Of a stretch of 40,006 nt of DNA, positions 13,685 to 39,592 are shown piece after piece; positions within the stretch are counted from its first letter, which is position 1; each line of letters begins with the position of its first letter. The position numbers were made by a program, and so were the translations under genes. The notes below the pieces were generated by a model that saw nothing but the letters and a program-made list of their open reading frames with translations, ran no database searches and was not told the origin of the DNA. The DNA comes from Gemmatimonadota bacterium (lineage in GTDB: Bacteria; Gemmatimonadota; Gemmatimonadetes; Gemmatimonadales; GWC2-71-9): NCBI GenBank assembly GCA_036679605.1, contig JAZDCZ010000069.1:1-40006 (forward strand). The letters run 5' to 3'.

Positions 13685-13765
13685 CAACCAAGAGCGTAAC
13701 TACATCTTGCGTGCCATGTTATCCAGGTGCATGTTTGCCCATCTCAGTCATATCGTCTTGGAGCC

Positions 13766-16708
13766 ATGGCCGATACAGCAGATGATGTAACTCGTTGTCC
13801 TTCGTGCGGTGGACATCTTGATCCCGACGACCACTTCTGTTCCAAGTGTGGCGCTTCATTGCCCAGCATGCCGACCGTGGCGGCTGCAGAATTGGAACCT
13901 GATGGCGCCGAACACACCGATCCCGAACTCGAGAAATCGCTTCGTGCTGCTTTGAGCCCCAACTATCTGCTCATTCGCCAAATCGGCGTGGGTGGGATGG
14001 GGTCCGTGTTTCTGGCTAGGGAGCCTGCGCTAAAGCGACTCGTGGCGGTGAAGGTGTTAGCCGGTGAGTTGGCCGCTGACCAGAGTGCGCGGGCACGGTT
14101 TCAGCGAGAGGCGGAGGCAGTAGCCGGTATCTCGCACCCCAACGTCGTGTCGATCTATGGGCTCGGTGAGCTGGAGGACGGCACGCCGTACTTCGTCATG
14201 CAGTACGTCTCCGGTAGGAGTATGGCGGCGCGGCTGGGTGAGGAGGGCGAGCTTGGAGTCGAAGAGGTCAAGCACATACTTGGAGAGGTGGCATCGGCGC
14301 TTGCTGCCGCACACAAGCGCGGCGTGATCCATCGCGACATCAAACCCGCCAATATTCTCTACGACGAGGAGTCGGGCCGAGTCCTGGTTTCCGATTTCGG
14401 TATAGCCGCGGTCCGGCCGGGGGGAGACTCCGAGGACAAGACGCAACTCACACGGACCGGCATGGCTATTGGTACCCCCAAGTACATGAGCCCCGAGCAG
14501 CTGTTGGCGGAGAAGGTAACCGACCGCACCGACGTGTATGCGGTCGGACTCACCGGCTACGAACTGCTGACCGGGCGGGGACCATTTGACATCAAGTCGC
14601 CGCAAGAGATCATGGCCGCACATCTTCGCGACGAGCCGGTCAAACTCTCCCGACTGCGGAGCGACATCGATCCTGAGTTCGAGAGCTTGCTTGCGGCGTG
14701 TCTGAGTAAGAAGGCTACGGAACGTCCCGCGGCGGCTGAAGTTGCCAAGCGTCTCTTGCCCGGTGCCGGAGCCCTTCTCGAGTGGCCACCACCAGGGCTC
14801 GAGGCCTTGCGGGGAAAGGGAGTCACGCTCGCACTTTTATGGCTACTAGCAAGTTCGTTGTTTGCGGTATCAGCCCTCGTGCTCGTCGGCATCGGTCCAT
14901 CACTGTCCTCGGCGGTCACGTCCTTCGCTGCTCTGTTACCGTTGATCTTCGGGACCGTAGGCGTTGTCGCGCTTGCAGTTGCGGTATCCTCTACGTGGAG
15001 ACTCTCACGACGAGTTGGCCGGGCGTTCGATCTGGGGTTCGGCTCACTTACTATCGCCGAGGTCTTGGCGGACCGTCGCGGGGACATGGGAGCGGTAATA
15101 ACCGGGATGCGCGAGTATGCCCCGCTCGCGCCCGCAACGAGATCCCGTCTCCGAACGGAACGCGTAGTCGCAGCGGCTCTGCTCTTGTTTTCCGGCATCC
15201 TACCTGTTCCGGCATTGATCCTATTCATCTGGCTAGGATCGAAGGGCTTGATTGGTGGCGCGGCGGCACCGTTCATGGTAATGGGGCCATCGGTTCTGGT
15301 ATTTGTTGCATCCGTATGGTTGAGAACCCGTGAGCAGCGAGGGCTGGGCAGGACGCGGGCGCTGCTGCAGCAACGGCATGTGCCGTCGGAAAAATTGGCG
15401 CGACTCGTCGATCCTTGGTATGAGACGTTCGAGTCGGCGAGACGCGATCAAGTGCTTGGTAGGGGCCCGGGCGGTTATGCGAGGACGAGCTGGCTTGTCG
15501 GAGGCGCTATAGGGGCGGCAGTGCTTTTCAGCATCGTCTTGGCGGTACCGCTTGGTGTCGTCGGAGTTGTCCATTCCACCATCTGGCAAAACTCCCCTCC
15601 GCGGTTCAGCCGCACGCAAGAAAAGGCTCGAATTGCATGGGCGTTCAAGAGCTACGGCGTCGCGGTTGACTCCTCTATAACGCCGTTGAAAGCAGGACGC
15701 GCATTCTATTCACTTATACCAGGCGACATCTCGGAAAGGCGTCTGTTTCCCCAACATCCGCCTCCAAGAAAAATCGAGACGGTGACGGACGCGTTGCCCG
15801 AAAACCCGTGGGGTGCACCCAGCTTAGGTGTGGTCACTACCGGGGACACTTCCTTGATATTCAAGGCGATTCAGGGGTTTACAGCCGACGAAACGCTTTA
15901 TCTGGAGCGTTTGGCCTCCCTCCCCGGCTGGGAAGAGTTCGATGTAGTCGCACACGCCGCGGCCATGGACTACCTGAGTGCGCGCTACGTGCTGCCGTTC
16001 CCCGATTCAGTGTCCTTATGGGCCATGCCGCTTCCTAGGTCTGTTGGAACGAAGGAATGGGCGTACGCGAATTCGGCACGGGCGGCACTTTGGATGTCAC
16101 AGGGGAAGCTTCGTGAGGCCGAGGAGGCGTTTGGCGAAACGATTTCGGTTGGTCTTCTCCTCATGGAAGAGCATTTCCTAATCACAAGTCTGGTCGGCGC
16201 GGTTATCACCGGCATTGGGCGACATGGGCTGGAGGAATTTTACACTGCGACCGGTCGTGAACGAGAGGCGAGCGTGTTACGGGCCAAATACGATTCCGTG
16301 ATTGGCCTGAATGAGGAACTGAGCGTTGCCAGTGCTAGTCAACCGACCTCGTTCGACGTCGCGTATGTACGGAATTCGATAACGCGCGTTGTGCAGGACA
16401 GTACGATGACTCGTGGGCTGAGGTGGGAGCTGCTCAGGTGGCTTCCCTTCGCGCCATGCACCAACGTTAGGGAACTCATTTTTGGGCCGGATCGAGAGTT
16501 ACAGGTGGTATTTTCAAGTGCGCGCGAACAACTGGCTCGGTTTCCCAGCGAAGAACAGTACTACGACTTCATCACTGCAGAACTCGAGCGTTCTATTCAA
16601 ACGACGCTGCCCGTTACCAAGCGGGCAGTCTTCCGGGCGGCGGACATCACGGGCAAGCTCCTGGGAAACAAGCGGCTGGGCGGTTGCGTCCAGGTGCTCT
16701 TGCGATAG
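13766..16708 (+). CDS. Hanks-type Ser/Thr kinase with N-terminal zinc ribbon, about 5 TM helices and a large C-terminal domain
   Basis: CPSC..CSKC; GVGGMG, VAVK, HRDIKPANI, DFG and GTPKYMSPE motifs; GGAG before ATG 13766. Confidence 0.93.
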   Translation: MADTADDVTRCPSCGGHLDPDDHFCSKCGASLPSMPTVAAAELEPDGAEHTDPELEKSLRAALSPNYLLIRQIGVGGMGSVFLAREPALKRLVAVKVLAGELAADQSARARFQREAEAVAGISHPNVVSIYGLGELEDGTPYFVMQYVSGRSMAARLGEEGELGVEEVKHILGEVASALAAAHKRGVIHRDIKPANILYDEESGRVLVSDFGIAAVRPGGDSEDKTQLTRTGMAIGTPKYMSPEQLLAEKVTDRTDVYAVGLTGYELLTGRGPFDIKSPQEIMAAHLRDEPVKLSRLRSDIDPEFESLLAACLSKKATERPAAAEVAKRLLPGAGALLEWPPPGLEALRGKGVTLALLWLLASSLFAVSALVLVGIGPSLSSAVTSFAALLPLIFGTVGVVALAVAVSSTWRLSRRVGRAFDLGFGSLTIAEVLADRRGDMGAVITGMREYAPLAPATRSRLRTERVVAAALLLFSGILPVPALILFIWLGSKGLIGGAAAPFMVMGPSVLVFVASVWLRTREQRGLGRTRALLQQRHVPSEKLARLVDPWYETFESARRDQVLGRGPGGYARTSWLVGGAIGAAVLFSIVLAVPLGVVGVVHSTIWQNSPPRFSRTQEKARIAWAFKSYGVAVDSSITPLKAGRAFYSLIPGDISERRLFPQHPPPRKIETVTDALPENPWGAPSLGVVTTGDTSLIFKAIQGFTADETLYLERLASLPGWEEFDVVAHAAAMDYLSARYVLPFPDSVSLWAMPLPRSVGTKEWAYANSARAALWMSQGKLREAEEAFGETISVGLLLMEEHFLITSLVGAVITGIGRHGLEEFYTATGREREASVLRAKYDSVIGLNEELSVASASQPTSFDVAYVRNSITRVVQDSTMTRGLRWELLRWLPFAPCTNVRELIFGPDRELQVVFSSAREQLARFPSEEQYYDFITAELERSIQTTLPVTKRAVFRAADITGKLLGNKRLGGCVQVLLR

Positions 16709-16711
16709 TGA

Positions 16712-16746
16712 CCTTCTAGCCAGGGCCGCTCCAACTAGCTAGCATT
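16712..16746 (+). repeat. 35-bp direct repeat, copy 1 (copy 2 at 17277-17311)
   Basis: CCTTCTAGCC-AGGG-CCGCTCCAACTAGCTAGCATT; 32/35 identical to copy 2. Confidence 0.9.
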
Positions 16747-16748
16747 CT

Positions 16749-16856
16749 CTGCCACGGACCTTAGACCAGGATGCGGATTCCCTGGGATGGGTCTATGCCG
16801 TAGAGGCCCCACTGGGCATGGGAGTGATCCGCGATCGAGAACATCATCCGCAGCAG
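16749..16856 (+). mobile_element. 108-bp MITE-like element, empty copy A
   Basis: Ends CTGCCACGGA...TCCGCAGCAG form an imperfect inverted repeat; same length as and colinear with 20619-20726. Confidence 0.75.
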
Positions 16857-16885
16857 CGACCCTTTCCCGGATGTGCGGTCGAAGG

Positions 16886-16953
16886 AAAGCCGGAGAACTT
16901 TCGTCCCCCGGCCTTCTGACGCAGCAAATCGGCTACGCTAAATCACATCCCGT
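16886..16953 (-). terminator. Two-hairpin repeat ending in a GAAA-loop terminator-like stem, downstream of the unusual tRNA
   Basis: Minus strand GGCCGGGGGAC-GAAA-GTTCTCCGGCT-TTCCTT; homologous to 24961-25027. Confidence 0.65.
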
Positions 16954-16998
16954 ACTTGCAACCTAAGGGCAGCTCTTGCGGGAGTCAATGCGCGGCTG

Positions 16999-17082
16999 TG
17001 CTGGCGGTCGGAGTCGAACCGACAAGGACTTTCGTCCGACGGGATGTGATTCCGTTGCGTTTACCAATTTCGCCACGCCAGC
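16999..17082 (-). tRNA. Class II tRNA with a tRNA-Leu-type body and CAC (Val) anticodon; functional status uncertain
   Basis: GCTGGCG/CGCCAGC acceptor stem, A73, D arm GCGAAATTGGTAAACGC, anticodon arm ACGGA-ATCACAT-CCCGT (A31.C39 mismatch), variable arm GGAC-GAAA-GTCC, T arm GTCGG-TTCGACT-CCGAC. CCA is not encoded. Confidence 0.88.
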
Positions 17083-17276
17083 ACTCAAATCGGCGGCGAA
17101 CCGTAGTAACCAAGAAGGCTAGACGCGTGAATCTTCGCACCCTTGCCGAGCCGCGTATCTACGATAGTGAAGCGGGAAACGAGTGAATAACCAAAGTTAC
17201 GCCGAGTGGTACCAATTCTCGCGTACGCACTTGCGGCGTTGACGGGGGTCAGGCGAGAGGGACGCTGAGGACAGCC

Positions 17277-17311
17277 CCTTCTAGCCGAAGCCGCTCCAAC
17301 TAGCTAGCATT
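17277..17311 (+). repeat. 35-bp direct repeat, copy 2, overlapping the probable greA -10 box
   Basis: CCTTCTAGCC-GAAG-CCGCTCCAACTAGCTAGCATT; TAGCAT lies 7 nt before ATG 17318. Confidence 0.9.
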
Positions 17312-17317
17312 TCTAGT

Positions 17318-17800
17318 ATGCTGGATGCCATTAAGAAGAAGCTCCATGACGAGGTCCAGGCGCTCACCTACGAGCTGACTGTCACCCTGCCCGATACGCT
17401 CGAAAAGGCGATCGCAATGGGTGATCTGCGTGAGAACGCCGACTACCAGGCCGCACACGAGCGTCGTCAATTCGTGCAGGTCCGTATCAATCACCTGCGA
17501 CTGAGGCTCGAGAAGCTAGCCAATCTGGATCTCTCCAAGATCCCCAAGGACCGGGTCGGACTGGGTTCCAGAGTGAAGGTCAAAGATCTCGATTCCGGTA
17601 AGACTGAAACCTATGAGTTGGTGGTTTCAGACGGCGCCGACTTCGAGGGCGGTCAAATCTCTGTGTCGTCTCCGCTGGGGCGAGGCCTACTCGACGGCAA
17701 GAAGGGCGATAAGGTTGGCGTCAGGCTTCCGGTGGGGGCGCGGAGCCTGAAGATCGTGGGGCTCCAGACGGTGCACGACCTGATGGCTGAGGAGAACTAG
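17318..17800 (+). CDS. greA: GreA/GreB family transcription elongation factor
   Basis: GDLRENADY, VGLGSRV and ISVSSPLGRGL motifs. Confidence 0.9.
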   Translation: MLDAIKKKLHDEVQALTYELTVTLPDTLEKAIAMGDLRENADYQAAHERRQFVQVRINHLRLRLEKLANLDLSKIPKDRVGLGSRVKVKDLDSGKTETYELVVSDGADFEGGQISVSSPLGRGLLDGKKGDKVGVRLPVGARSLKIVGLQTVHDLMAEEN

Positions 17801-20514: not shown

Positions 20515-20618
20515 TGGACACCTCCTTATGCATACAACGCTAGCATAAAACGGGCCGTTTTCGGGGTTCGCTATTGACCTAATTTTGCACTGGACTGTGG
20601 CGAGCGTGCCTCAGCTCT

Positions 20619-20726
20619 CTGCCACGGATCTTTGATTAGGATACAGATTCCCGTGATGTGTCTAATGTCGTTGAGGCTGGACTCGGCACCGGCGGAATCC
20701 GCGCTCAAGAAAATCATCCGCGGCAG
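20619..20726 (+). mobile_element. 108-bp MITE-like element, empty copy B
   Basis: CTGCCACGGAT...ATCCGCGGCAG terminal inverted repeat; the right-end tip TCATCCGCGGCAG is repeated at 20729-20741. Confidence 0.78.
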
Positions 20727-21911: not shown

Positions 21912-21913
21912 GT

Positions 21914-21955
21914 CTGCCGCGGATCTTTGATCAGGACGGGGATTCCCGAAGGATG
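21914..21955 (+). repeat. Left end of the 108-bp element family
   Basis: CTGCCGCGGATCTTTGATCAGGACGGGGATTCCC. Confidence 0.8.
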
Positions 21956-23277: not shown

Positions 23278-24945
23278 ATGAGGTTTTCGACTAACATGCT
23301 GCTGGTTTGCCTGGTCGCCGGCTGTGTAGCGGAGGAGATAATAGAGCCGGACGAAGAGCTTCTCGAGCCGGCCGACGGATTGACGCACGAGATGGCATTC
23401 GTGGACCGCACCACGGAAGCGGGATTCATTGCTTTCGGTTCTGCTTCGTCTGAACCTGACCAGGAAGAATCGGCCATGCAAATGGAGTTGGCAATGCTGG
23501 GTGGAGTTGCTGCCGGCGACTTCGACGCTGACGGTGACGTCGATCTCTTTCTGGTATCCGATGGCTCGGGCGACAATTTGCTATATCGGAATAACGGAGA
23601 CGGCACCTTTGAGGAAGTGGGTGCTCAATACGGTATAAGCAGTACGCCGATATACGAATCCGGGCCCATCTTTGTCGACTATGACGGTGACGGCCATCTC
23701 GATTTGATCGTTGGCGGTGTCCGGCGGATGTCTGAGTGGCAGGATTACAATTCTGTCGCGGTATTCCGCAACACCGGTATGCAGAGCTTCGTTGATGTGA
23801 CACCGGGAACGGGCTTGGTCTTGCCACCGGAAGTCGACACCTACTCGATTTCCGCCGGAGATGTTGATGGAGATGATCGTCTTGATCTGTTCCTCAGCCA
23901 CTGGCGGACGCGCGGCGGACGGGATTCTCTCGGCGCGGTAGTGACTGTCTCTCACGGGCGCAACTTTTTATGGAAGAACAATGGTGCCGGAAGCTTTGTC
24001 GACATTACCAGTGAGTTTGGCTTGGATGAACTCCGATTCACCTTGACGGCCAACTTTTCTGACATCGATCGTGATGATGATCTCGACTTGCTAGTGGCGA
24101 GTGATTTCCGTAGCAGCATGGTATTGCTGAACAATGGCGGGACGTTTGTGGAGGAGCCGAACTCGGTACTGAGTGATGGTAATGGGATGGGCGCCTCGAT
24201 GGGGGACTACGACAATGACGGGGACCTTGACTGGTTCGTAACGAGCATCTGGGATCCCAACGGGATAGCCGAAGGGGAGTGGGATATCTCCGGTAACCGC
24301 CTCTACCGAAATGACGGTCATGGGCGGTTCGCAGATGTGAGCATTGCGGCAGGCGTTCGGGAGGGGTACTGGGGATGGGCGAGTTGTTTCGCTGACTTCG
24401 ACAATGACGGCAACCTCGACTTGTTTCATGTTAACGGCATGCAGGCGAATAGGAATTCGATATTTGGTGAATTCTGGGCGGACCCGTCCCGTCTCTTCAT
24501 TGCCAATGGGGATGGGACGTTTACAGAACGATCATCCGAGGTCGGGCTGAGTGACTACGGGCAGGGCCGCGGGGTTGTGTGTTTCGATGCCGATCGAGAT
24601 GGTGATATTGATATTTTCGTAGCCAACAACGCGCAGCCACCAACGTTTTACGTCAACGAAGGGACAAATGTCAACAATTATCTAGAGATCGTGCTTCGGG
24701 GTGTCTCCCCGAACACCCAGGGCATAGGTGCACGAATAATGGTAACGGCAGGAGGAAAAATTCAGACCCGAGAGATCCGCGCGGGTGGCAACTACGTTTC
24801 CCAAGATCCGGCGGAAGCGCACTTTGGATTTGGTCAGGAGGAAATCGCCAGCGAGGTACTCGTCAGATGGCCTGACGGGCAGGTAACGGTTCTGCAGGCT
24901 GTCGCTGCCAACCAGGTCTTGGTGATACCTCACCCGGGTTTGTGA
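23278..24945 (+). CDS. CRTAC1/ASPIC-UnbV family FG-GAP repeat lipoprotein
   Basis: Lipobox VAGC; repeated D.D.DG..D motifs; C-terminal N..GIGA..V and YVSQ...HFG..V.WPDG. Confidence 0.92.
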   Translation: MRFSTNMLLVCLVAGCVAEEIIEPDEELLEPADGLTHEMAFVDRTTEAGFIAFGSASSEPDQEESAMQMELAMLGGVAAGDFDADGDVDLFLVSDGSGDNLLYRNNGDGTFEEVGAQYGISSTPIYESGPIFVDYDGDGHLDLIVGGVRRMSEWQDYNSVAVFRNTGMQSFVDVTPGTGLVLPPEVDTYSISAGDVDGDDRLDLFLSHWRTRGGRDSLGAVVTVSHGRNFLWKNNGAGSFVDITSEFGLDELRFTLTANFSDIDRDDDLDLLVASDFRSSMVLLNNGGTFVEEPNSVLSDGNGMGASMGDYDNDGDLDWFVTSIWDPNGIAEGEWDISGNRLYRNDGHGRFADVSIAAGVREGYWGWASCFADFDNDGNLDLFHVNGMQANRNSIFGEFWADPSRLFIANGDGTFTERSSEVGLSDYGQGRGVVCFDADRDGDIDIFVANNAQPPTFYVNEGTNVNNYLEIVLRGVSPNTQGIGARIMVTAGGKIQTREIRAGGNYVSQDPAEAHFGFGQEEIASEVLVRWPDGQVTVLQAVAANQVLVIPHPGL

Positions 24946-24960
24946 ATAGCGGCTCAAGAA

Positions 24961-25027
24961 AAAGCCGGAGAGCTTTCGCCCCCCGGCCTTCTCCTGTAGC
25001 TAACGACTACGCTAGATCAGGTCCTGT
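24961..25027 (-). terminator. Two-hairpin repeat ending in an intrinsic terminator
   Basis: Minus strand GGCCGGGGGGC-GAAA-GCTCTCCGGCT-TTTTCTT after the 25044 stop; homologous to 16886-16953. Confidence 0.75.
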
Positions 25028-29086: not shown

Positions 29087-29134
29087 GGAACGGACTGATC
29101 CGGGTTCGATACAATCAGCCGCGGCAGTGTGTCT

Positions 29135-29892
29135 CTGCCACGGATCCTCGATCGGAGCGCGGATTTCAAGAGATGGGTCTACAGAGGGGGCGACGGCGGG
29201 TGGACTACAGCTTCTCGAACAGGGTAACGACGTCGATCTCTCCCGATGCGCCGTTGGGAAGTTGCCAACAGAGCGTGGAATCGCAGATCTGGGGGCGTCG
29301 GTCCTCGGGTGTCCATCTCTCGATCAGCCGAGCTTCTAGGTCGACGATCCAGTATTCCGCTACCTGGGTCTGTTGGTAGATGCGGCGTTTGGCACCGCGG
29401 TCGCGGTGAGCGGTTGATGGAGATAGTGCTTCGACAACCAGAACGGGTGTGGGTGCCTCGGTCCAGCTCGTGATTCTCGTACCGGGCAATCGCTCTAGCA
29501 CGAAGATGTCGGGTTGCACCAAGGTTTTCTCACCGAGCTGTAAGTCGGCGGGACTCCACAGCACTTCCAGTGTGGGCCATTCTCGCAATTGTCTCGCAAG
29601 CTCGAGGAACAGTCTGCCTAGGGCGTGTTGGTGTGGGTAACTCGGGGCGGGCGTCACGACGTGAGTGCCGTCCAGCAACTCGTGCCGCAAGCCGTCGTCG
29701 GGCAGTGCGAGCAGCTCCTCGATGGTCGTAACGCGATCGTCTGTAGCCGGCATACCCACAATGTGTATCTCCTCGGCCGAGTGGTGCAAGCGAACGAAAG
29801 CCGAGGATACCATGTGGGAGTTGCGGAGTAGTAACCGGATCATTGCAGGCAGGTGCAAAAAAACGATTACAGCTCAAGAATATCATCCGGGG
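29135..29892 (+). mobile_element. Putative cargo-carrying form of the 108-bp element around the Uma2 gene
   Basis: Left end CTGCCACGGATCCTCGATCGGAGCGCGGATTTC at 29135; right end GCTCAAGAATATCATCCGGGG at 29872-29892 (19/21 vs copy B, terminal CAG lost). Confidence 0.55.
29205..29753 (-). CDS. Uma2 family endonuclease
   Basis: HELLDG, P....HQ, VQPDI, LVVEALSPST..D...K...Y and EYWIVD motifs. Confidence 0.92.
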   Translation of the reverse strand: MPATDDRVTTIEELLALPDDGLRHELLDGTHVVTPAPSYPHQHALGRLFLELARQLREWPTLEVLWSPADLQLGEKTLVQPDIFVLERLPGTRITSWTEAPTPVLVVEALSPSTAHRDRGAKRRIYQQTQVAEYWIVDLEARLIERWTPEDRRPQICDSTLCWQLPNGASGEIDVVTLFEKL

Positions 29893-38549: not shown

Positions 38550-39592
38550 ATGAAACGGACTACGAAATATGTCGCACGGTCGCCTCTGTGCGAGGAGAGA
38601 GCGGCCGGGTGATCGCCCGGAGCATTCTGCCGACGGAGGAGCCGGCGCTCAGGGACTTCTTGGGCGGCATGCGCGGCACTGTGCACGTCGCCTTTGAGGA
38701 AGGAACCCAGGCGCAGTGGTTGCACGACCTGATCACGCCGTTGGTGGATCGCGTCGTCGTCTGCGATCGGCGCGGCGCAGCCCGTCGTGGCAACAAGGGT
38801 GACCATCATGATGCGGATGAGTTATCCGAGTTGTTGCGGCGTAACGGACTGCGGATGGTGTATCACGGCAGTGCGCTCCACCTTGATCTCAAGGAGTTCA
38901 CCCGCACGTACCGAAACCTGGTCGAGGACTCGACGCGGGTGATGCTACGCCTCAAGGCGCTGTTCCGCGCCCGCGCGATAAGGACCTCGGGCACGGCGGT
39001 CTATCACCCTCGGAACCGCGGGCAGTGGCTCGCGCAACTCACCGAGCGCGGTATTCGGTTCCGGGCCGAGGCCCTCTACGCGGAGCTCGACGTGCTCCGA
39101 GCACTGCGCCCCAAGGCGAAGGCGGCGATGATCGCGGAGGCCAACCGCAACCCGGCGTGGCCTGTGCTGCAGGCGATCCCATTTTATGGGCCGGTGCGTG
39201 TGGCATTGCTGCTGGCCACGATGGGGACGCCCTGGCGCTTTCGTACCAAACGGAACCTGTGGGCCTACGCGGGTCTGGCAGTGGTCACACGCTCGAGCGC
39301 GGACTATACGCTCGTCGCTGGTCAGCCGGTGCGCCGGCGCCGGGCACCATTGACGCGTGGGCTGAATCCAAATCACAACCGGGTGCTCAAGGACGTGTTC
39401 AAAGGCGCGGCCACAGCCGCCACGGTGCAGCCCGGGCCCCTGCAGGAATTCTACTGCGGGTTGCTCGCCCGCGGAATGCGAGAGCCGATGGCGCGCGTGA
39501 CACTAGCGCGCAAGCTCGCCGCACTCACACTACGACTCTGGAAGACAGGAGAGCGCTACGATCCAGCGAAGCTGACAATGCAAGCGCAGTAG
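38550..39592 (+). pseudogene. IS110-family recombinase with an N-terminal deletion/frameshift
   Basis: MKRTTKYVA then a frame change to TVASVR; the LDVH-type first RuvC strand is missing. EEGT, K.DHHDA, YAGL...SS and ARKL motifs are present; AAGGAG RBS. Confidence 0.85.

Follow-up and report, generated by a model that had tools for sequence, protein, structure and literature searches.

Among bacterial toxin-antitoxin (TA) systems, the type VIII class, in which both partners are RNAs, is represented in TADB 3.0 by only two validated loci, creTA and SdsR-RyeA (PMC10767807; review PMC12737573; for these and all reports cited below, statements refer to the available parts of their text). Here we describe a locus from a Gemmatimonadota bacterium, located within a 40,006-nt stretch of DNA (the window, positions 1 to 40,006 of contig JAZDCZ010000069.1), in which a transfer RNA (tRNA) gene with a leucine-type body and the valine anticodon CAC (16999-17082, minus strand) is followed by a predicted small RNA gene complementary to its anticodon arm (16882-16953, also minus strand). 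As in creTA and SdsR-RyeA, two adjacent RNA genes occur without a protein toxin, an arrangement characteristic of type VIII, and the toxin would act on translation, both RNAs being predicted in the present case. The RNAs of SdsR-RyeA are encoded on opposite strands, whereas here the antisense gene is in tandem, on the same strand and non-overlapping; and CreT sequesters a rare tRNA while CreA needs Cascade, whereas in our case a tRNA is the candidate toxin and no Cas gene is tied to it.

The tRNA recalls three described groups. Like the nev-tRNAs of nematodes, it belongs to a set of tRNA-Leu-derived class II molecules with non-Leu anticodons; nev-tRNAs carry Gly or Ile anticodons, are charged with Leu only and decode as Leu in vitro, but they are eukaryotic, and the available text mentions no antisense partner (PMC3333845). 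Allo-tRNAs are bacterial long-arm tRNAs with varied non-cognate anticodons, which show missense activity and toxicity in E. coli and for which the authors suggest a link with toxin-antitoxin systems; they have an 8/4 or 9/3 architecture, a Sec-like D arm, G73 or U73 and Ser or Ala identity, and are found near protein TA genes (PMC5389517). The text parts and supplement text of that report, figures apart, mention no antisense element beside them. Members of the present family are instead 7/5, A73 and Leu-type, occur in Gemmatimonadota and have a cognate antisense gene, which places them outside the allo-tRNAs. The third group, tRNA-ProX, is a bacterial mistranslating family with several anticodons on one body, a Pro body, in a fixed operon with a special synthetase, ProRSx, and is toxic in E. 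coli when constitutively expressed; neither available text mentions an antisense partner (PMC10404621, PMC11415595). The present family differs from it in its Leu-type body, with one ordinary LeuRS in the host genome, in lacking fixed neighbours or a conserved synthetase, and in having an antisense partner.

A further comparison is provided by type I systems, whose toxins are small proteins and whose silencing proceeds via RNase III. Some type I loci have non-overlapping antisense genes (tisB/istR1, dinQ/agrB) and others are multicopy (ibs/sib, ldr/rdl), and the likeness extends to a long structured toxin leader, a small antisense RNA whose 5′ tail is open, several copies per genome that are each specific for their cognate partner, and tandem arrays. 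Here, unlike in type I, we found no conserved small open reading frame (ORF) and no RNase III, and the locus cannot be assigned to that type.

On the evidence of sequence comparison, the leucine-bodied CAC tRNA is one half of a two-gene RNA cassette (approximately 16882-17206), and this cassette belongs to a conserved family of co-varying tRNA and anti-tRNA genes with one-sided decay. The initial annotation had covered the tRNA only and overlooked the cognate antisense gene downstream. The tRNA features which it listed (A15, U48, G18G19, A20a, A73 and the CAC loop) are all present. ARAGORN calls the gene tRNA-Val(cac), and it scores 50.5 bits against Rfam RF00005 (gathering score 29); no other Rfam family exceeded its gathering threshold in 16700-17320, the single further match being at chance level. 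It is a class II tRNA with a long variable arm and its anticodon at 17048-17046; its cloverleaf (-32.2 kcal/mol, z -2.53) includes a 7-bp acceptor, a 5-bp T stem and a 4-bp variable stem, while an A31.C39 mismatch leaves the anticodon stem at only 4 bp. The CCA end is not genome-encoded. We consider this molecule a candidate RNA toxin.

The antisense gene begins 46 bases downstream of the tRNA. Its first 13 nt (16941-16953, minus strand), which start at the predicted +1, are a perfect complement of tRNA positions 31-43 (17039-17051), and this 13/13 match is the sole inverted repeat within 16400-17500. The predicted RNA of about 70 nt, the candidate antitoxin, has an open 5′ tail (18 single-stranded nt), a hairpin and an intrinsic terminator, with a fold z of -3.63. 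The D arm and acceptor 5′ strand of the tRNA have a degenerate complement in hairpin 1 of the minimum free energy fold (16919-16938, minus strand), and with this region included the duplex (-51.8 kcal/mol) could span most of the tRNA 5′ half. The unit closes with an intrinsic-terminator-like hairpin and a U-rich tail (16882-16916, minus strand; one site predicted, 16908-16892), whose stem shows double changes in 9 of 12 pairs across 60 sequences. A covariance model, R1, gives the unit 85.3 bits, a score to be read with the fact that this copy belongs to the training set; a second match in the window (24945-25012, minus strand; 33.4 bits, E 2.6e-7) is a remnant with hairpin and terminator only and has no tRNA.

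Relatives were collected with a search pattern built on the tRNA ends, which returned 84 stretches in genome contigs and at least 120 in metagenomes. Over a set of 248 loci there were 238 pattern matches, of which 211 are unique and 208 were parsed (three unparsed were dropped and five re-registered by one base); these divide into 181 with non-Leu anticodons, which we refer to as the family, and 27 ordinary tRNA-Leu. Family anticodons are CGC (74), CAC (47), GGC (13), GGT (9), GAC (9), CTC (9) and GTC (8), followed by AGC (4), TGC (2), TTC (2) and single cases of GAT, CGT, CCC and AAC; they correspond to Ala, Val, Glu, Thr, Asp, Ile or Gly (Ala 93, Val 57 and Gly 1 of 181). Gemmatimonadota account for 57 of the 62 family loci that come from named genomes, and the remaining five, each a single locus assigned elsewhere, may be misbinned. 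The antisense covariance model has matches in 24 of 150 genomes of the phylum and none in 35 ordinary tRNA-Leu loci. Eight loci (L265, L269, L293, L299, L301, L303, L304 and L305) have acceptor stems outside the search pattern together with the same antisense unit; our count therefore understates the size of the family, which may be built on more than one tRNA-Leu body.

The strongest support for a functional pair comes from the cognate match between the two genes. A matching antisense stretch is present in every one of the 177 family loci for which 110 nt or more of downstream flank were available, lying downstream in 172 and upstream in 5. The mean energy of the anticodon-arm duplex across these loci is -28.1 kcal/mol with the own downstream partner, against -15.1 when the partner is foreign; ordinary tRNA-Leu, paired with the sequence downstream of them, give -11.2. 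As an energy cut-off of -15 is unspecific (it is passed by 3367 of 7080 foreign pairs), rank and anticodon-swap tests were used instead: the own partner is stronger than all 40 foreign ones in 142/177 loci, and among all 64 triplets the own anticodon ranks first in 167/177. The 10 misses are five G.U wobble cases and the five loci in which the antisense unit precedes the tRNA by about 200 nt. These upstream arrangements (L069, L157, L239), two or three of them independent, have a unit with its own promoter and terminator, present in L157 as three tandem copies; since such units still match their tRNA, action in trans is indicated.

Across the 169 loci that could be anchored, pairing at positions 34, 35 and 36 reaches 100%, 100% and 99%, by several pair types and with compensatory changes, and the paired fraction drops from 87% at position 40 to 40% at position 41. 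On a 155-row FastTree of leader and body, with the arm omitted, the anticodon changed at least 66 times (shuffled labels: mean 83, minimum 77), and in 20 of 21 disjoint close pairs the opposing triplet switched along with it. Among 153 non-redundant loci, G.U pairs outnumber A.C pairs by 64 to 16 in the arm-antisense duplex, an excess which points to pairing at the RNA level on this strand rather than to a purely DNA-level inverted repeat. The host genome (G000; 6.7 Mb in 434 contigs, 96.5% complete, 6.3% contaminated, the window being its contig C401) repeats the pattern internally: for every antisense unit the strongest pairing is the one with its own tRNA, two copies (on C88 and C93) having a common arm.

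The antisense unit looks like a separate gene with a predicted sigma-70-like promoter (16960-16988, minus strand), with a -35 box at 16988-16983, a 17-nt spacer and a -10 box at 16965-16960. Because the window copy falls below the cut-off of a generic scan, the promoter claim rests on the family alignment: a TTG box 16-18 nt before TAnnnT occurs ahead of the complement in 138/169 loci (mean 1.05 in shuffled spacers). The first paired base lies 7 nt past the -10 box in 80/148 loci and 6-8 nt past it in 121/148, and 6-8 nt is the usual distance to a transcription start. Folding of 40 sampled read-through RNAs gave an anticodon stem probability of 0.00, against 0.69 in the mature tRNA. We also observed CTCGG in 49/152 antisense promoters (8.3 shuffled), often directly behind the -35 box, and CCGA frequently 7 nt before the -10 box, at times as an inverted pair; these may possibly form a regulator site resembling a LexA half-site.

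The tRNA gene is preceded by a conserved 5′ leader of about 72 nt (17083-17154, minus strand), which starts with GCGG and could pair with CCGC of the 3′ trailer (16995-16992). Upstream of it are a predicted -10 box (17161-17166, minus strand; TAnnnT in 69/111 loci against 15.1 shuffled) and, about 23 nt before that box, a conserved GCG...GGT motif (17190-17206, minus strand), which is possibly a regulator site and is not a full LexA box. The leader was considered as a second matched antisense and set aside as weak (own -17.2 against foreign -14.8 kcal/mol; best of 31 in 18/174 loci, 5.6 being expected by chance). Concerning regulators, a TTCGG-N6-TTCGG direct repeat is present at 30/30 lexA loci (L325-L354) and 24/24 recA loci (L355-L377, L379), mostly over the promoter, and is the probable LexA box of the host family lineage. 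Neither promoter of the cassette shows clear enrichment of this probable box (17 against 11.4, shuffle maximum 15, and 4 against 4.2, of 152).

The proposal that the tRNA has a leucine-type body agrees well with the family data, in which the elements recognized by LeuRS are kept while the anticodon spans 14 non-Leu triplets. In E. coli, LeuRS determinants are A73, A15-U48, G18G19, A20a and D/T-loop contacts, the anticodon not being among them (PMC9976931), and those of Aquifex LeuRS agree with this set (PMC2377443). The window tRNA carries the full Leu set (A73, A15:U48, G18G19, A20a, U54:A58). Among the 181 family members, A15:U48 is found in 178, G18G19 in 179 and A20a in 177, U54:A58 and A73 being fixed by the search pattern, and the acceptor is paired at 7/7 positions in 179. 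Thirty tRNAs that were found through their antisense alone have A73 (30), A15:U48 (28), C2-G71 (28) and a long arm (30); 16 of them have Ala anticodons, and in this set G3.U70 and Leu anticodons both occur in 0/30. The 93 Ala-anticodon members retrieved with the search pattern lack G3.U70 as well, but there the pattern itself ruled it out. G3.U70 is the determinant for AlaRS and C2-G71 an anti-SerRS element (PMC9976931), so that E. coli identity rules exclude the largest group, the members with Ala anticodons, from the alanine tRNAs. By these rules, Leu is the predicted identity common to the family.

The 95 ARAGORN calls in the host genome include ordinary short tRNA-Val (CAC, GAC and TAC), tRNA-Ala and all five tRNA-Leu anticodons; the separate Leu(CAA) and Val(CAC) genes, on which the initial annotation had asked for a check, are thus both present, and cognate ordinary tRNAs for GUG and GCG are retained. 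Seven long-arm genes share one body with the anticodons CAC (4), CGC (2) and AGC (1). The body of the window tRNA matches those of two Ala-anticodon paralogues at 50/52 positions and that of a canonical tRNA-Val at about 28/52, and it has a 15-nt variable arm, U20, U3-A70 and G4-C69 where canonical tRNA-Val has a short variable loop, G20, G3-C70 and U4-A69. The genome encodes one full LeuRS and one gene of the CCA-adding/poly(A) polymerase family.

The loop appears built for decoding: among 150 distinct arms, Y33 and A37 are found in all 150, C or G at position 34 in 141 and C36 in 141, with U36 in the other 9. Most of these anticodons require no modification at position 34 or 37. In a crude count over long ORFs the codons concerned are common (GTG 2.9%, GCG 3.4%, GAG 3.5%). 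Several roles had been suggested for the tRNA; insertion of Leu at GUG as a missense tRNA is the one favoured by the kept LeuRS elements together with the varying anticodons, while a role as a non-ribosomal aminoacyl (Leu) donor appears unlikely, no Leu/Phe-transferase having been found in the host genome and the loop composition being of the decoding type.

The two genes do not decay alike. Outside the host genome, 58 matches to the antisense model were classified by script as 27 intact, 11 remnant, 18 without tRNA and 2 at contig ends. Three of the script's remnants proved to be whole tRNAs with other acceptor stems, one of them with a damaged stem, and re-sorting by hand gave 30 units with a tRNA, 18 full or nearly full units with the tRNA lost or broken, 8 partial matches, which may include plain terminators, and 2 contig ends. 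Thus 18 of 48 scorable full units have lost their tRNA (absent in 7) or retain it broken by deletion or T-loop insertion (11), and none was found on the other side of these orphan units where flank was available. None of the 177 intact family tRNAs, on the other hand, is without a matching antisense. A pattern-free inventory of the host genome gave 7 pairs, with orphans on the antisense side (3 units) but none on the tRNA side, and in a genome of the same genus (G001) most of the tRNA has been cut out of one allele. The simplest reading of this polarity is that the tRNA is not tolerated alone. Some individual cases merit description: in L264 and L286 the T loop is interrupted by short palindromic insertions and the antisense unit is intact, and at C276:98190-99343 of the host genome a leader and tRNA 5′ stub are followed by about 900 bp with one or more open frames and then by an intact antisense unit, the tRNA having been replaced.

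Taken together, we propose, with a probability of roughly 0.65, that the locus is a toxin-antitoxin cassette made of RNA alone, with a missense tRNA as its toxin, expression, charging and toxicity being inferred. As judged from the conserved boxes, a weak promoter would produce a leader plus tRNA precursor and a separate promoter the antisense RNA of about 70 nt. The open 5′ tail of the latter would anneal to the loop and stem of the anticodon arm in the cognate tRNA, and the duplex, which can extend through the D arm and acceptor strand, would block folding, maturation or decoding; read-through precursors would be silenced in cis as well. Following the identity rules, a tRNA left free would mature, gain CCA and be charged with Leu by the single, anticodon-blind LeuRS. 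It would then compete with the ordinary tRNA-Val(CAC) and put Leu at GUG, its paralogues acting at GCG, GCC, GAG, GAC, ACC and others. A lapse in antisense supply would slow or kill the cell, which would make the cassette addictive, and it may possibly serve in dormancy or abortive infection. The RNase III catalytic domain (PF00636) was not found in any of 61 host-family genomes (61/61), with a control detected in 8/14 reference genomes, and RNase III was discarded as the executioner of the duplex. Silencing is therefore more likely to be steric, with decay by other nucleases.

Several observations weigh against this interpretation. The failure to find RNase III sets the cassette apart from classical antisense antitoxins, which act through this enzyme. 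A generic promoter scan of 16700-17330 gave no sites, the antisense promoter of the window scoring 8/12 with a cut-off of 9, and RNAalifold on 60 sequences did not recover hairpin 1 as a consensus helix. C33 in 43/181 members and imperfect anticodon stems in 33/181, including the window copy, could mean weak decoding, and A31.C39 may weaken the window tRNA in particular. ValRS may charge part of it, harmlessly, through A35, C36 and A73, and Val to Leu is a mild substitution. The loci are related, so that counts overstate their independence. Orphan antisense units could persist neutrally, and the polarity test is biased, as the tRNA pattern needed the first trailer bases and misses tRNAs with a deletion just behind the 3′ end. 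Finally, no plasmid, phage or integrase link was found for the cassette.

The alternative that we take most seriously, and consider nevertheless unlikely, is a regulated and useful mistranslation switch, in which low-level, non-lethal misincorporation of Leu under stress would provide proteome diversity or tolerance. The predominance of anticodons giving milder changes (Ala and Val above all) would suit such a role, as would the conserved unexplained motif upstream of the tRNA promoter and the increased carbenicillin tolerance conferred by tRNA-ProX in E. coli (PMC10404621). The patchy presence among phylum genomes, with several differing anticodons in one genome, the many anticodon changes on the tree and the frequent loss of the tRNA are a better fit to a selfish addiction module, and no SOS box enrichment was seen. 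It appears more doubtful still that the tRNA does harm, or regulates, without any insertion of Leu, being un- or poorly charged and jamming the A site, triggering the stringent response or titrating LeuRS or EF-Tu. Several allo-tRNAs are translation-inactive and two of these killed E. coli all the same (PMC5389517), and the relaxed positions 32, 33, 38 and 31.39 might be read in this way, but tightly kept LeuRS determinants and stems argue for charging, and loop length and Y33/A37 are also kept.

We regard it as very improbable that the complementarity is an inverted repeat at the DNA level, whose halves template switching keeps similar in a neutral repeat element from which no antisense RNA is made. 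The downstream unit does resemble an inverted tRNA 5′ half, as the leader does more weakly, and template switching may well be the route by which both partners change together; against a purely DNA-level origin stand the conserved promoter at the right distance, the covarying terminator, the excess of G.U over A.C and the matching that stays intact when gene order is swapped. An ordinary Val isoacceptor, a recently disabled tRNA-Leu(CAA), a recoded GUG or an assembly error can practically be dismissed: the ValRS determinants A35, C36 and A73 (PMC9976931) are present, with a stem-paired G45, and CAC is one change from CAA, but a normal 74-nt tRNA-Val(CAC) exists alongside a body shared with the Ala-anticodon paralogues, GTG and GCG columns align to Val (12, with Leu 1 and Ile 1) and Ala (6/6) in RecA and LexA, the only proteins compared, and the homologues which the initial annotation had proposed to look for number 181 loci with 150 distinct arms. 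As to the assembly, a separately assembled 21-kb contig from run X1 (depth 15.9) has 0 differences from the window over 16600-17400, a match that tests the assembly and says nothing on independent occurrence, X1 being possibly the source sample, and the downstream complement has a counterpart for each of the odd tRNA bases A31, A32, C36, U38 and C39.

In its genomic context, the cassette lies between a convergent Ser/Thr protein kinase gene (13727-16708, plus strand) and a divergent greA (17318-17800, plus strand), which is not a conserved neighbour of the family. It is enclosed by the only two copies in the host genome of a 35-nt direct repeat (16712-16746, at its left flank, and 17277-17311, just upstream of greA, both given on the plus strand). 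In G001 one copy of this repeat precedes greA and no cassette is found there, which, with the paired repeats of the window, suggests a recent insertion; as a clean empty site the G001 locus was rejected, its upstream DNA being different. The contigs of the seven long-arm genes fall within the main composition cloud of the host genome. Among 128 flanking frames of 70 loci there was no recurring partner protein or integrase (kinase domains 9, single matches to RelE, PIN and Phd, two Uma2 and one Glu/Gln-synthetase domain), and no class of small ORFs, considering ATG starts only, was common to more than 12 of 166 elements, as a hidden peptide toxin would require. A stricter pattern had 0 matches in viral contigs, and plasmids and phages gave only short tRNA-like matches.

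Further repeats and putative mobile features were noted. Tandem TTCTACCGCCC-type short repeats flank several cassette copies of the host genome, and a dispersed intergenic repeat, nearly confined to the contig, is found at 16746-16856, 20616-20726, 21913-21947 and 29132-29181 (best pair 78% over 112 nt). At 38588-39592 (plus strand) an IS110-family transposase-like ORF (NCBIfam E 3e-28, below cut-off) has a weaker TIGR-Tas match. Elsewhere in the host genome, contig C343, which has an outlying composition, carries a second, divergent set of about 25 tRNA genes in arrays (~50000-61500, 115000-116000, 131700-132400 and 149000-149600), including a 71-nt short-arm tRNA with anticodon TCA (115749-115819); these arrays are probably an integrated element or phage.

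Our search of the literature, with subscription papers mostly outside its coverage, returned no description of a tRNA gene with a cognate antisense gene, and this arrangement, a tRNA accompanied by its own anticodon-matched antisense gene, is one that we have not found described, whether or not the tRNA is a toxin. We favour on balance the view that the cassettes represent a new RNA-only addiction or defence class of the Gemmatimonadota, in which a Leu-inserting tRNA toxin would act at the commonest GNN codons and an anti-anticodon antitoxin would operate without RNase III, the pairs being re-specified jointly and up to seven of them coexisting in one genome. For annotation, the consequence is that long-arm "Ala" and "Val" tRNA calls in this phylum are probably mis-annotated. 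If the proposal is true, the two validated type VIII loci are joined by one with a new mode of toxicity, in which a tRNA deliberately corrupts the code, and the proposal would explain how harmful missense tRNAs persist, a question left open for allo-tRNAs and tRNA-ProX. It would also offer a route for holding and releasing codon ambiguity, through a protein-free switch of about 330 bp and a natural set of matched tRNA and anti-tRNA pairs.
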